Positions 623-47,738 of a stretch of 48,422 nt of DNA are shown here, one piece after another (position 1 is the stretch's first letter; each line of letters starts with the position of its first letter). Under the pieces are notes generated by a model that did no database searches, was not told the DNA's origin, and was given only the letters and a program-made list of their open reading frames with translations. The translations under genes were made by a program, and so were the position numbers. Source of the DNA: Escherichia phage ETEP102; the sequence record OR979723.1; one strand, 5' to 3'.

Positions 623-890
623 GTTGTCTAAGTGTGGCATCTGTCAAATTTGATAATATCCCCCACTAATATATAAGAGAGCCATTCCGCCAGGATAATA
701 GGGCCATATGCAGACAATCACCTTTCAGTATGCGTTACACGATATACCGCCTACTTACACCAGTCGTAGCGAGGCCTCCAAGGCGGAAATGTTTCCCGAC
801 CTGTTTTTTACATGCGATTACGGTTGACTTACGCGTTAACTCCCATCATAATTGCCTCACTTAAACGCAACAATCAAATGAGGTAACGAG

Positions 891-1427
891 ATGGATAAGG
901 TAACATTGGGTGATGTGATTCGCGAGATGGTACGCCAGGCAATTAAGTCCGACAAGAAGCTGTGCGTAGTTCCGGTTCGCAAGATATTCAACCTGGTAAA
1001 TGGTCATGATTATCCAGATGAAATACTGGACGAGGTGACGGGGGAGTACATGACTCCCGGGCGTGAGATCGTAGGTCTTAAAAGTTCATACATCTATAAC
1101 ACCGCAGCAAGAATGCAGGAGCTTCGGGATATTGATATGCACGTCAAGCATCGCTTTATCTGGCTGGCGTCAGGAGAGGAAACTGTAGCACGCAAGGCGG
1201 ATGGCGACGGCGCTGATAAGAACCTGTTAATCCAGCTTGAACCCGGGGCACTTAAGCCAACCAAACGAAAGACTGCAGATGTTGAGAGAGAAGTGGCAGC
1301 TATTGAAAGGTTCAAGGCTCGTCTGCTCAAGATCACACCAAACGTCATCGACCTGAAAGGCGAGCAGAAAGAAGGCGCTCTCATTGCCCTGGCACGTTAC
1401 CATGAAATGATTAAGGATACTAACTAA
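891..1427 (+). CDS. hypothetical protein (178 aa)
   Basis: ORF with GAGG about 9 nt upstream of ATG; no recognisable motif. Confidence 0.5.
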   Translation: MDKVTLGDVIREMVRQAIKSDKKLCVVPVRKIFNLVNGHDYPDEILDEVTGEYMTPGREIVGLKSSYIYNTAARMQELRDIDMHVKHRFIWLASGEETVARKADGDGADKNLLIQLEPGALKPTKRKTADVEREVAAIERFKARLLKITPNVIDLKGEQKEGALIALARYHEMIKDTN

Positions 1428-1987
1428 TGTTTAATTTCGACGAAGATAAATTGACCGATGAAAAGGTGATGGAAGTCGCCAGGCAAGATAACCTGCCTCC
1501 ACTTCGTGTGGCAATCAATGCTAATGGATACCGTCAATAATTCAAGTTCTGGCCCAGCGCCGAAGAGATGCTGTGCGTCAAGTTGAGCTACAAATACGGC
1601 GTCGTAGTGAGCAGGATTCGCCGCCAGTGCTGCAACGGGAAGGGAGTGTCTGGCATTCGATCTCTATACGAGGCAATCCGAAAGGTCCAGCCATTCGTCG
1701 GGCGCGAAGGGATTATGCATGACCTGACAAATAACATCATCCCAGCACTACAGGAGGCGGGAATTGTTTGCCTCATTGGCGATAAGATTTATGTGCATCC
1801 GGCCCTGGTGGGAATGTATGAGCGAGACGTGTACAACTGGTGCAGTCAGTACCGATCTGATGCGCCACGCTCTCACTACGTTGAGCCGATTAAGCCGACA
1901 ACCATCCATGGCTATGATGCCGATGAGGTGGAGAAGGCCATCCAGTTCTACCGGAAAGCGAAATCTCTCCTGAATGGTGAATATTAA
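1427..1987 (+). pseudogene. internally deleted remnant paralog of the P-loop ATPase at 44067-45650, with in-frame TAA at 1538-1540
   Basis: 1427-1537 encodes MFNFDEDKLTDEKVMEVARQDNLPPLRVAINANGYRQ (matches N-terminus MFDFNEDKLSIDQVMAVAAADNLPPLRVAINANGYRQ); same frame continues after TAA into ORF 1568-1987 whose GKGVSGIRSLYEAIRKVQPF...IGDKIYVHP matches the ATPase C-terminus; central P-loop region absent. Confidence 0.5.
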
Positions 1988-3254: not shown

Positions 3255-3413
3255 ATGAACAGCATCAACCGTTATATCCCTGTGTCAGTGCCAACCAGCG
3301 TCAATATTCACGGCGTCGGAATGCAAGCCTGCGACGATGGAGCATGGGTATCCTACGCAATGCATAAAAAAGAAATCGAGTCCTTACAGGCGCGTTTAAA
3401 GGCCTTAGAATAG
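3255..3413 (+). CDS. small hypothetical protein (52 aa)
   Basis: ATG with GAGGA 8 nt upstream, downstream of motif/hexamer module; below the 60-aa cutoff of the ORF track. Confidence 0.4.
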   Translation: MNSINRYIPVSVPTSVNIHGVGMQACDDGAWVSYAMHKKEIESLQARLKALE

Positions 3414-3494
3414 ACTCAAAAACATCAAATTTCTGCACCGTCGATTATCGCTGACCATGTTGAGCAGGCAATCAAAGAAGCTGTAGGTAAGCTG

Positions 3495-4061
3495 GTGCAC
3501 GAAGCATGTGAGCAATTACTCAAGGATTTGCCTAAGTACAATGGCGATCCGTGTCACAGCACTGTCGATGCATTCGTTAGTGAAATGGCAAAAGCTCCGG
3601 ATGATGGCGTGAAGTGTTATTACCTTGTCGCAGATGAATTGACGAAGAACGGCAAGTTCACTTTCGGTAGCAATTTCGGTGAAGGCAAGGCGCTCACCAT
3701 GTCAACCGCGAAAATGGAACCACGCATCGGCGGTTACGGGTATGGCAATCGTCACGTATGGGCGGTTGGTGAATGTGAATCAGCACGCGATCGCAAGGTG
3801 GCAGTTTGCTACCATGTTAATAACGGCAGTGCGTTTATCAATGGTTGCGAGTACGCGTATGAAATTGATGAATGCGAACCAGGTTGCGAGCCTCGCCTTA
3901 TCCATATCGCACAAGATGCATTCATCTCTGATTTAAAAGGCGATTACCGATGGAAAGCAAAGAGAATTGGTAAGGTTATGAATGCCAAGGCAACGCTAGG
4001 TGACGCATACGCAATAGTAAATCCTGATTGCGGCGTAGTGGCTAAGTTCTATATCAAATAG
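3495..4061 (+). CDS. Cys-rich hypothetical protein (188 aa)
   Basis: ORF in track; first codon is GTG (in-frame TAG three codons upstream), an internal ATG start is possible; many Cys/Gly residues. Confidence 0.45.
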   Translation: MHEACEQLLKDLPKYNGDPCHSTVDAFVSEMAKAPDDGVKCYYLVADELTKNGKFTFGSNFGEGKALTMSTAKMEPRIGGYGYGNRHVWAVGECESARDRKVAVCYHVNNGSAFINGCEYAYEIDECEPGCEPRLIHIAQDAFISDLKGDYRWKAKRIGKVMNAKATLGDAYAIVNPDCGVVAKFYIK

Positions 4062-6978: not shown

Positions 6979-7053
6979 GCTCCGCTAGCTCAATTGGATA
7001 GCAGCAACGACCTTCTAAGTCGTATGTTACTGGTTCGAATCCAGTGCAGAGCG
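6979..7053 (+). tRNA. tRNA-Arg (anticodon TCT), encoded CCA follows at 7054-7056
   Basis: Hand-folded cloverleaf: acceptor 6979-6985/7046-7052 (one C-A mismatch), D-loop with GG, anticodon stem 7007-7011/7019-7023, loop CTTCTAA, T-loop TTCGAAT. Confidence 0.75.
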
Positions 7054-7060
7054 CCAATTT

Positions 7061-7177: not shown

Positions 7178-7357
7178 ATGTTCAAAGTCAAGCTGACGAT
7201 ATTGCTGATGGGCCGCACGTGCGCATCATGTAAACAGAACTTTGAGACAACCGTTCAGGCATTAAATGCCGAGGAAGCAGTTTCAAAGGCAAAGAAAATG
7301 AGCGGAGTCGATACGACGACTCACAAATTTTTAGTTAATTATGTAAGTGGTATATAA
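7178..7357 (+). CDS. hypothetical protein (59 aa)
   Basis: ATG 7178 with ACGAGG upstream; MFKVKLTILLMGRTCASCKQNF... Confidence 0.4.
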   Translation: MFKVKLTILLMGRTCASCKQNFETTVQALNAEEAVSKAKKMSGVDTTTHKFLVNYVSGI

Positions 7358-7578
7358 TGCTGACGTTTGTTTATGGTTTCTTGTTCGCTTCCGTCCTTAT
7401 CGTTTCGATGTCGTGCGCTTGGGATTCTCGGATTGTTAAGCGCGGGTTTCTTGCTCAGGCGCGATACGATGAGAAGAAAAAAGAGTGGCGCGTAGCCTGC
7501 AAGTTCATCTCAGTATTCAAAGAGATCGACGACATCCGATCGGGGCGGAAGCCTGGGGCCATAAAATACGTTGACTGA
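7357..7578 (+). CDS. putative membrane protein (73 aa)
   Basis: Hydrophobic N-terminus FVYGFLFASVLIVSMS; TAATG overlap. Confidence 0.4.
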   Translation: MLTFVYGFLFASVLIVSMSCAWDSRIVKRGFLAQARYDEKKKEWRVACKFISVFKEIDDIRSGRKPGAIKYVD

Positions 7579-43609: not shown

Positions 43610-44134
43610 TTAGCGCCCGTGGTTATGGTGGAATTTAAGCCTTGCCCTAGCATCAATCACGGCCTGGCAGGCATCATCAAACAGGTAAAAAGTTCCTAGT
43701 GCAATTCTTTTACCGCTCAGGGATATTCTGGCCTTGAACTTCCCGTTCTTTTCAATCGTAACGCCAGGGAATCCGCTGGTGTTATTCTTATATACACTTT
43801 TGTTTTTTGAGTTATCTTGAGCCGATACAAGCCTGAGATTTACTCGTCTATTATCCATTCTATTATGATTTATGTGGTCAATCTGCATCCCCTTCGGTAT
43901 TTCACCCTCTCAAATATTCCATATTACAACGTGATTTGTCAGCCTCTTACCACCATAATCGAAACGCCTATAGCCACCTCTTGACTTATTGCCGCAATAG
44001 TTACCTTCTATCGCGGTTGGGTTTATTGTCCTAAGCCAGACTAAATCAATACCATCATAACCAATGTCAGGATAGCAATCGTGGGTTAACATATACCTTG
44101 TCTCCAATTGTGCAGGTGTAATATTTCTCATCAA
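43610..44134 (-). pseudogene. HNH homing endonuclease interrupted by in-frame TGA (43910-43912)
   Basis: Track ORFs 43910-44134 and 43610-43888 are in the same frame; joined reading ...HVVIWNI-stop-EGEIPKGMQIDHINHNRMDNRRVNLR matches intact paralog ...HRVIWYIHNGEIPEGMEVDHINHERDDNRISNLR. Confidence 0.6.
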
Positions 44135-45650
44135 GCATTGGCAGTAAGTGATCTTTAATCTTTGTCATTATCCCGGCCTGAGATTCGAATGGCTTAACCT
44201 TACGCGCCGCTTCATATAGGGATCGGACACCTACAACGCCTTTCCCGTTCTTGCCTTGCTTGATCAGGATGTCAATCAGCTTGTTCATCTCAGCATGGTC
44301 GCCAGCATGACCAGCAGCGTTTGCAGATGACAGATAAGTCTTACTCAGTTCCTGGAACATAATTACCGCTTCCTGCATTGTGTCAAGCTCAATCTCTCTG
44401 GACTTCTGCGGACTCCCGCCATTGGGATTAAACCAGTTACGCACAGTGTGAAGAACAGCAGCAATCCTGATGGCCTGCTTATCGAACTTACCCAACGCGC
44501 CGCGCAACATTGTGTGTGAATACTTCCCGCCGTCCGCAAGGTGAGGCTCCATATCCTGACGCGCACGGTTGAGATATTTCATCGCCGACGTGCTCACTGT
44601 CAGGTTGACTTCGTGTTCGCTCATGATCTCATGGACCAGACGGAAGTAGTCCGCCTTGAGTCCGCCATCAATCGGCTCGTATGTTGATTCGCCTTTTTCG
44701 TCAACGAATACACGCTCGCCAAGGAATGACTTCTCACGCACAAGCAAGAAACGTTCTGACACACCGATACCACGCGCACCAGCATTCATGATCGCGTTGA
44801 TTGTTTCATCCTGTGCAATTACAGAGATGCAACCCATCGCAATAAAGCTCATGTTATTGTCTGCGTTCGCACGCGCGATAGATACGTTACCAGCATCCCA
44901 TGCTTTCAGCACAAGCTCGCTGTTCGTTTTCTTTGAACCGTCACCATAGGTCATGCCTAAAAGTGAGTTCACGCTCGTCGCTTCATCCGAGATCACAGAG
45001 AAGTTGCCCTGGCGGTTGTTGATTCTCGCAAGACCTTCCGGCGTGGTGTCTGATACGGGGAACACGATGTCACAAAGGCGTTCCAGTTTTTCTTCCAGTT
45101 CTTCTTTTTCCTCAAACAGCGCCGCCATGTCAGATGGTGATTTCTCCTGCTTCATCTCCTTGGATAGAGCGGAAAGCTTAGCCATAATCTTCTTGCGGTC
45201 ACGCCTTCGGATCTCGTTGAGTCGCTCAGTCTCGGCGATCATCGGGGCCAGTGAAAGTGAGTTGATAGCTGATTTACCCGTCGATGGTGGCTGACTGGTT
45301 ACGACGTACAGCGCGGTAGGCTGTTGTGTTCCGTGATACTCAACCGTAAATCGTCCAAGCATCGCAGCAGAGATACATCCCAGGAAGTGCATATAAGCAG
45401 ATGACTCGGGGAACTGGACTGAGCGAGCAGCGTTGCTCGATAGTTTACCAACGACATCATGATCGTTTCCCAGGGAGATGACGGGATATTTGTCACCGCC
45501 TGAGTCAATCTCTGTAGGAGCTTTCCAGAATGACTGGCTCTGCCTGTATCCGTTGGCATTGATGGCGACGCGCAGAGGCGGGAGGTTATCGGCGGCGGCG
45601 ACAGCCATAACCTGATCAATTGACAATTTATCTTCGTTGAAATCAAACAT
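44067..45650 (-). CDS. P-loop ATPase, putative replicative primase-helicase C-terminal-type (DUF3987-like)
   Basis: Walker A-like SQPPSTGKSA; 527 aa; AAGGAG RBS; family name from recollection only. Confidence 0.5.
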   Translation of the reverse strand: MFDFNEDKLSIDQVMAVAAADNLPPLRVAINANGYRQSQSFWKAPTEIDSGGDKYPVISLGNDHDVVGKLSSNAARSVQFPESSAYMHFLGCISAAMLGRFTVEYHGTQQPTALYVVTSQPPSTGKSAINSLSLAPMIAETERLNEIRRRDRKKIMAKLSALSKEMKQEKSPSDMAALFEEKEELEEKLERLCDIVFPVSDTTPEGLARINNRQGNFSVISDEATSVNSLLGMTYGDGSKKTNSELVLKAWDAGNVSIARANADNNMSFIAMGCISVIAQDETINAIMNAGARGIGVSERFLLVREKSFLGERVFVDEKGESTYEPIDGGLKADYFRLVHEIMSEHEVNLTVSTSAMKYLNRARQDMEPHLADGGKYSHTMLRGALGKFDKQAIRIAAVLHTVRNWFNPNGGSPQKSREIELDTMQEAVIMFQELSKTYLSSANAAGHAGDHAEMNKLIDILIKQGKNGKGVVGVRSLYEAARKVKPFESQAGIMTKIKDHLLPMLDEKYYTCTIGDKVYVNPRLLS

Positions 45651-47675: not shown

Positions 47676-47738
47676 TTTTACTTCCTCTTGTGTACTTCGT
47701 TTCGATGAAATGATTATGCCTCAATCCGTGAGGCTTAG

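Follow-up and report, generated by a model that had tools for sequence, protein, structure and literature searches.

A mini-gene homologous to the two ends of an MCM-like helicase and interrupted by a stop codon in Escherichia phage ETEP102

The genome of Escherichia phage ETEP102 (OR979723.1) was analyzed as one stretch of 48,422 nucleotides, called the window here. On its plus strand, positions 1427-1987 hold a single frame of 186 codons in which codon 38 is an ochre codon, TAA (1538-1540), and we describe this locus as a disrupted, helicase-derived mini-gene of the phrog_7327 (JK_46P) family. The stop leaves two open reading frames (ORFs). The first one, which we call the N-module (1427-1540), encodes 37 amino acids (aa) homologous to residues 1-37 of the replicative helicase of the phage. 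The second (1568-1987) starts at an ATG that corresponds to codon 48 and encodes 139 aa, with a winged helix homologous to helicase residues 454-527, a disordered linker, and a C-terminal amphipathic helix that is specific to the family. A Shine-Dalgarno-like AAGGA lies about 10 nt 5' of the mini-gene start, and this start overlaps, at 1427 (TAATG), the stop codon of the DUF7174 gene (phrog_4841; 891-1427, plus strand), its constant upstream partner. The parent-type gene is located at 44067-45650 on the minus strand and encodes a 527-aa DUF3987 replicative helicase of superfamily 6 (SF6), MCM-like (PF13148, E = 4e-39; phrog_2373, E = 6e-252).

A first-pass annotation of the sequence had read the locus as a paralog of the replicative ATPase gene that has an internal deletion and carries an in-frame TAA, and alignment at both ends confirms this. 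Its coordinates were right: 37 aa are encoded from 1427 to 1537, the TAA follows, and the frame stays open through the ORF at 1568-1987. With the read-through translation as query, BLASTP aligned mini residues 1-48 with helicase residues 1-48 at 65% identity (E = 2e-17), and the resemblance continues past the stop (RQ, stop, FKFW in the mini-gene vs. RQSQSFW in the helicase). Mini residues 66-128 aligned with helicase residues 464-526 at 52% identity (E = 4e-19; BLASTP). In a DNA comparison, 105 nt of the 5' end were 75% identical and 64 nt of the 3' block were 70% identical, and because the identity is only 70-75% the two genes are old paralogs, not recent duplicates. Profile methods agreed on the second block: hhalign paired mini residues 56-129 with helicase residues 454-527 (probability 99.4%, E = 2.5e-21), and the PHROG profile of the mini family matched helicase residues 439-526 (E = 2.5e-52). 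The mini thus aligns with the helicase only at residues 1-48 and from residue 439 or 454 to 527, and the central stretch of about 400 aa with the P-loop is missing, as had been noticed. That the retained terminal domains are interaction domains, a further suggestion of the same annotation, is plausible.

In the helicase gene, the counterparts of the two conserved blocks are encoded on the minus strand at 45507-45650 (N-module, aa 1-48, equivalent to mini aa 1-48) and at 44070-44291 (C-terminal winged-helix domain, aa 454-527, equivalent to mini aa 56-129). Read from the translation, the Walker A (PPSTGKS, residues 121-127) and Walker B (VISDEA) motifs both fall inside the part that the mini has lost. 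DUF3987 proteins have been described as SF6 replicative helicases with a winged helix-turn-helix at the C-terminus (Kazlauskas et al. 2016, PMC4889955), and helicase activity has been demonstrated for a PriCT-DUF3987 protein (PMC11724360). A search of the PDB with the helicase sequence gave no match, and only the fold search succeeded: the best 50 PDB matches of the AlphaFold2 (AF2) model (pLDDT 89.5, pTM 0.87) were all MCM subunits, with E values down to 4e-6. Compared with DUF3987/SF6 helicases, the mini is devoid of the whole AAA+ core, including Walker A and B, keeps the C-terminal winged helix, and has an extra tail; its sequence marks it as a derivative, and not a member, of the DUF3987 helicases.

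The family phrog_7327 is catalogued without a function, and its members include JK_46P of Jk06, e41c_0064 of e4/1c, and bas03_0065 of JulesPiccard. The 139-aa ORF of the window matched the family profile at positions 48-179 (E = 4.4e-60), and the intact mini P0001, 95% identical to that of the window, matched it at positions 1-185 (E = 1.5e-91). The intact orthologue of TH30 is 93.5% identical to the window mini, and the N-terminal 37 aa of the window are identical in TH30 and P0001. Intact single ORFs of 174-187 aa are present in Jk06, e4/1c, TH30, TH21, GaoY1-9D, ESCO41, BEK6, SU57, Sadiya, and CJ19. The window shares with the family the full-length profile match and the place behind DUF7174, and departs from its uninterrupted ORF of about 174-192 aa through the TAA at codon 38.

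Among 5.8 billion proteins searched, 322 relatives (protein clusters) were found, and nearly all of the 120 matches listed were 174-192 aa long with full-length coverage. A 55-member alignment revealed invariant or near-invariant columns throughout the mini, tail included, where the conserved C-terminal motif Y..EV..AI.FYRKAK.LL.G is without a helicase counterpart. Pairwise ratios of nonsynonymous to synonymous substitution (dN/dS) within the family were 0.14-0.47. In every locus with gene annotation that was inspected, the mini-gene lay directly 3' of the DUF7174 gene, with overlapping stop and start codons. A profile search of 1.84 billion representatives gave 52 matches, which were minis, mini fragments, or Drexlerviridae-type helicases. 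In the phage collection, the mini occurred in about 105-110 of some 920 helicase-bearing records, and DUF7174 in 133 records. The mini family is clearly narrow, accessory, and under selection. Of the two readings offered by the first-pass annotation, a mini-protein with only the terminal domains therefore describes the family (length, conserved columns, dN/dS, and fixed synteny), whereas a decaying duplicate does not, and fits only the allele of this genome with its private change from TCA to TAA.

Pfam gave no match to the mini at E<=0.1, and PADLOC likewise gave none. The orthologue of UDF157lw (OQ243221.1, 901-1461) was deposited as a HEPN domain-containing protein, a label that we rejected: besides the absence of a Pfam match, the predicted fold of the mini is a winged helix, and its sole RxxxxxxH string falls in the disordered linker, which is not conserved. 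We also discarded gene conversion or concerted evolution between the mini-gene and the helicase gene of the same phage, as the helicases are 89-100% identical to each other and the minis only 36-95%, and as the N-modules of the minis are 64-81% identical to any helicase N-module, without preference for that of their own genome.

The structure of the mini was modeled with AF2 on P0001 (pLDDT 85.5). Its N-terminus consists of three short helices (11-20, 25-33, and 36-41) in a pattern that matches the helicase model. The winged-helix unit is made up of a helix (55-68), a strand (74-76), two helices (77-84 and 96-110), and a hairpin (114-123), in the same order of elements as helicase residues 451-521 (both AF2 models), and is followed by a disordered stretch (147-155) and a terminal helix (165-182). 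This helix-strand-helix-helix-hairpin topology fits solved winged-helix domains, with which the sequence identity is 6-16%; the closest fold matches were winged helices of the ORC/Cdc6/MCM type, and the DNA binders MarR, Fur, and forkhead were also present. In MCM, ORC, and Cdc6 the winged helix is C-terminal, whereas that of the mini is encoded in a separate gene, fused to the helicase N-terminal module. By composition, the isoelectric point (pI) is about 9 for the winged-helix module and about 5 for the N-module. A look-alike FKARLLK stretch in DUF7174 was considered as a homologue of the C-terminal helix and was ruled out by hhalign (probability 0.6%).

In an alignment of seven DNA sequences, the stop is private to the window. 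The six relatives have TCA (Ser) at this position, or GCT (Ala) in TH21, and the TAA corresponds to one C-to-A change at Ser38 (TCA to TAA). The dN/dS of the window mini against its closest relatives is still 0.22-0.24, which argues that the lesion is either recent or not real. The base after the stop is T; of the terminator contexts in E. coli, the strongest is UAA with U as the next base. The ATG at 1568 that could serve as restart is preceded only by a weak, badly spaced Shine-Dalgarno-like GAAGAG, and M48 is not conserved across the mini family. The allele would be expected to yield the N-module peptide of 37 aa and no more than a small amount of the 139-aa remainder; a full-length product is not expected because the TAA cuts the frame between the two modules. 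The window contains no suppressor tRNA, its only tRNA gene being a tRNA-Arg (TCT; 6979-7056) that is found in ESCO41 too. An exact-sequence look-up of the 139-aa product found no record of it in public assemblies, and thus no independent copy of the window allele was found among the assemblies searched.

A genome-wide burst of C-to-A changes, through oxidative damage or a mutator host, was rejected as a source of the Ser-to-stop changes in the window, as the private substitution spectrum of the window is like those of three relatives (C>A 20.8% vs. 14-20%). Other genes of the window show similar changes. A private in-frame TAG (3411-3413) divides a 268-codon gene (3255-4061), which is whole in L012, ESCO41, and CJ19, into ORFs 3255-3413 and 3495-4061; the relatives have TCG (Ser53), and the change is C-to-A and Ser-to-stop like that of the mini-gene. 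A small ORF at 7178-7360, homologous to CJ19_040, is two codons short by a Ser-to-stop change (GISC in CJ19; GI, stop, C here).

To place this lesion among others, 39 distinct mini loci were compiled from phage records, IMG/VR, metagenomes, and assemblies. Of these, 26 were intact and 13 were damaged or reduced, a proportion that is rough because the sample was partly chosen for short proteins. Three stops or frameshifts besides that of the window interrupt the first junction. The phage CEB_EC3a (vB_EcoS_CEB_EC3a, KY398841.1, 893-1414) has an independent TAA at the same column 38, in a diverged mini-gene whose downstream frame is whole and whose annotation shows two ORFs instead of one; in the relatives of this phage, DTL and UALMA_PCEc3, the codon at column 38 is TCA. 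Frameshifts occur at column ~42 in L075 and at column ~47 in L032/L033, two samples with identical sequence in which both ORFs are intact. Phleasolo (OL539447.1) carries at column ~48 a 129-bp insert (1644-1772) that is exactly one ORF of 42 aa from ATG to TGA (MANTVIFTLMSALNYMKDMASQLRAMEMSLVSAFPKSVRIDI) and brings a GAGGA and a TTG restart for the downstream module; outside the insert, its mini-gene is identical to that of Sadiya. The remaining single lesions are stops at the second module junction, at column 140 in the 12210I clade, 141 in DTL, ~150 in L065, and ~160 in L066.

All nine independent single lesions fall at columns 38-48 or 140-160, and residues 1-37 and 55-139, 66% of the protein, are free of them. 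For nine of nine to avoid those residues has a probability of about 7e-5, with boundaries that were partly drawn post hoc; a clustering test free of such assumptions gave a mean nearest-neighbour distance of 3.0 against 11.4 expected (p = 0.002). Other loci are reduced more heavily. ORFs of 36-63 aa that hold the N-module only are found right after DUF7174 in several diverged lineages. L081 (Ga0079226_10013624, 901-1056) encodes a variant of 51 aa: columns ~25-157 have been deleted between the microhomologous GLP and RLP, so that N-module residues 1-24 run in frame into the C-terminal helix. In Rtp (AM156909.1), only the first 16 codons of the mini-gene survive, within rtp2 (1064-1123; 19 aa, MFDFTEEKLTDEQVMRIVE), and an unrelated lipoprotein-like gene takes the place of the remainder; L058 is a wreck with two lesions. 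The restriction of lesions to the junctions suggests that the modules may act separately and that the N-module is the one kept most consistently.

The phage is a T1-like siphovirus of the Drexlerviridae, near Nouzillyvirus and Rogunavirinae, and its nearest relatives in the phage collection have ~85-89% identity across 45-64% of the first 24 kb of the window. In TH30, one alignment runs from window position 47695 through the end to position 169. Since the window ends are contiguous in this relative, the window is a circular permutation of the whole genome, and the helicase gene and the mini-gene are only about 4.2 kb apart and divergent. The placement of the mini-gene as inverted at the opposite end of the window, in the first-pass annotation, is thus an artefact of the cut point. 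The two arms, leftward with the helicase and rightward with DUF7174 and the mini-gene, are separated by a putative control region, divergent and intergenic, of 700 bp (190-890) with several repeat families and an AT-rich block (~540-620). The repeats include three copies of a ~32-nt unit with TTGCAATGATTCA-like cores (264-372), three GCATACGCG repeats, and two TGTATnCTGTGTAACG repeats, which have their inverted counterpart at 733-747. The region could be an operator or origin. A sigma-70-like promoter candidate, identified by consensus match only (TTGACT-17-CATAAT, 10/12; 824-852, plus strand), is located ahead of the DUF7174/mini operon. DUF7174 had no match among solved structures. Between the window and ESCO41, the helicases are 98% identical and the mini-proteins just 57%, whereas ESCO41 and BEK6, a phage of the Braunvirinae, share 83% identity in their minis; these discordant identities indicate that the early-operon module has been swapped independently of the helicase.

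Next to the helicase gene, an HNH_3 homing-endonuclease gene is inserted at 43611-44074, just after and slightly into the helicase 3' end, and alters the last residues of the helicase (RLLS instead of RLLG). The insertion is not present in TH30, e4/1c, or an AHS24-like phage. It is broken by an in-frame TGA (43910-43912) into ORFs 43610-43888 and 43910-44134. SU57 has an intact HNH homologue (176 aa, 48% identical) 3' of its helicase.

Our favored explanation, which we hold with moderate confidence, is that 1427-1987 holds a nonsense allele of an accessory early gene conserved in part of the Drexlerviridae, and that this gene is an old, ATPase-less helicase paralog acting as a non-catalytic mimic of the peripheral modules of the helicase. 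The mini-gene kept an acidic N-terminal three-helix module (aa 1-41), a basic winged helix (aa ~55-129), and a tail with an amphipathic helix. With the ATPase core gone, its protein can neither hydrolyze ATP nor unwind DNA. It would probably be co-expressed and translationally coupled with the DUF7174 protein, from an operon that looks early, and would bind whatever the two peripheral modules of the helicase bind, be it the loader or initiator, the primase, DNA, or helicase subunits. Such binding may tune the recruitment or the activity of the helicase early in infection. MCM winged-helix domains engage loaders. Modulation of the helicase by the mini is proposed by analogy, because the winged-helix domain of archaeal MCM modulates ATPase and helicase activity and so regulates the motor (PMC4357721). 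In the window, a recent C-to-A change at Ser38 cuts the frame exactly between the modules, so that the full-length protein is presumably not made and the 139-aa product with winged helix and tail would arise only through inefficient reinitiation at ATG 1568.

Several observations weigh against this explanation. A third of the mini loci are damaged; the mini-gene is dispensable, in the laboratory at least, and may have an effect that is small or conditional. It evolves far faster than the helicase, the minis being 36-95% identical in genome pairs whose helicases are 89-100% identical, and its variation from genome to genome does not track that of the resident helicase; both facts weaken the case for tight mimicry. 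The winged-helix module is basic, and a DNA-binding role is equally possible for it. A bolder variant, which we put forward only tentatively and consider rather doubtful, is that the mini is a modular helicase mimic under conflicting selection: the N-module would stay constant, the winged helix and tail would be shed repeatedly at the junctions, by stops, frameshifts, or insertions, where the full-length protein is costly on some hosts, and the TAA of the window would be adaptive. If so, full-length mini might, for example, be sensed by a defence system or over-inhibit helicase loading, and the N-module would be a micro-protein of 36-60 aa with a layout identical to that of the flexible N-terminal recruitment module of the helicase.

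The stop itself admits two other readings. It could stem from an error of sequencing or assembly or from a minority variant, and the phage would then encode an intact 186-aa protein. The TAA differs from the codon of close relatives by a single base, the rest of the window mini-gene shows no relaxed constraint, and two further private in-frame stops in accessory genes (the TAG at 3411-3413 and the TGA at 43910-43912) could mean errors in the consensus. However, substitution errors are rare in consensus assemblies, the private substitution spectrum of the window is ordinary, and a comparison with the 71 CJ19 proteins matched by the window flagged no frameshifted conserved gene; what it did flag as partial or split were small ORFs and paralogous HNH or helicase matches. 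CEB_EC3a, which was sequenced independently, has a TAA at the same alignment column, and all three stops lie in accessory genes, as expected of real mutations filtered by selection. On balance, an error seems improbable to us. The coincidence of the TAA in two unrelated lineages would also be expected of a programmed recoding or readthrough site giving two isoforms. We regard this as scarcely credible, because the TAA is present in just 2 of the 39 loci, the close relatives in the alignment have a Ser codon (TCA) there, or an Ala codon (GCT) in TH21, the sole tRNA of the window reads Arg (TCT) and is no suppressor, and the UAAU context is a strong terminator.

As for function, the reading with the most weight beside our own is possible, if clearly the less likely of the two: the N-module peptide and the winged-helix-plus-tail protein would work as separate polypeptides, with breaks at the junction tolerated or even selected, for example as escape from a host factor that would sense the full-length protein or be blocked by it. 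It would account for the nine of nine single lesions that avoid residues 1-37 and 55-139, for the GAGGA and TTG restart supplied at the junction by the Phleasolo insert, for the L032/L033 frameshift that leaves both ORFs whole with the same sequence in two samples, for the entirely open downstream frames of CEB_EC3a and the window, and for the N-module-only ORFs that persist behind DUF7174 in diverged lineages. Yet the ribosome binding site ahead of the restart codon of the window is poor, M48 is not conserved across the family, open downstream frames may reflect only how recent the lesions are, the junction boundaries were partly set after the lesions were known, some loci are plain wrecks (the two lesions of L058, the Rtp remnant), and the N-only ORFs could be recombination scars beside an essential neighbour. 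The mini could instead be a sequence-specific DNA binder descended from helicase parts, an origin-binding protein or transcriptional regulator of the adjacent control region and no mimic. The winged-helix fold, the basic pI (~9) of its module, the MarR, Fur, and forkhead proteins among the fold matches, and the position of the mini-gene, ~540 bp away from the repeats and the AT-rich sequence of the divergent region, all speak for this. We consider it unlikely, since the top fold matches are ORC/Cdc6/MCM-type winged helices, often protein-contacting, the putative recognition helix (MHDLTNNIIPALQEAG) is not basic, and the strongly conserved N-module, common to mini and helicase, would stay unexplained. 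Finally, the premature stop of the window allele, the 13 of 39 loci damaged or reduced, and the lack of the mini-gene in most Drexlerviridae might point to a functionless, decaying helicase duplicate. Such a pseudogene is very unlikely given the purifying selection across the family, the tight length distribution (among the 120 matches listed of 322), the invariant tail residues without a helicase counterpart, the fixed operon position, and an AF2 model that is confident and compact.

The concept of a truncated replication protein without catalytic activity is not new. HSV-1 OBPC/UL8.5, derived from the UL9 origin-binding helicase, papillomavirus E8^E2, and the shorter form of T7 gp4 arise from the same gene as the full-length protein, via internal starts or splicing, and can compete with it or modulate it. 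The mini resembles these isoforms in that the binding modules are kept and the catalytic core is gone. It differs from them as a separate, old paralogous gene in which an internal deletion joins the N- and C-termini, and a regulatory effect like theirs is suggested by analogy. In T4-like phages, some genes are split by small inserted ORFs or by homing endonuclease genes. Phleasolo is similar in having a self-contained 42-codon ORF within its mini-gene and restart signals for the downstream half, although its insert, unlike homing-endonuclease splits, has no recognizable nuclease. The window differs from such split genes by carrying a point nonsense mutation and no insertion, at nearly the same junction as the cut in Phleasolo. 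We found no published account of phrog_7327 deriving from a helicase, and the literature on DUF7174, on Drexlerviridae escape mutants, and on helicase or winged-helix mini-proteins held nothing about the mini family. As far as our searches went, no separate gene that unites both terminal modules of an MCM-like helicase has been described.

For annotation, the two ORFs of the window are best called one disrupted gene, and the HEPN label should not be spread. With these results, phrog_7327 gains a concrete origin and a testable role, as a protein of its own in which both peripheral modules of an MCM-like replicative helicase are fused. The lesions that recur at the same junctions in independent phages constitute a natural experiment on which modules matter, and a mini composed of the terminal modules of the helicase alone is a ready-made probe for the partners of those modules.

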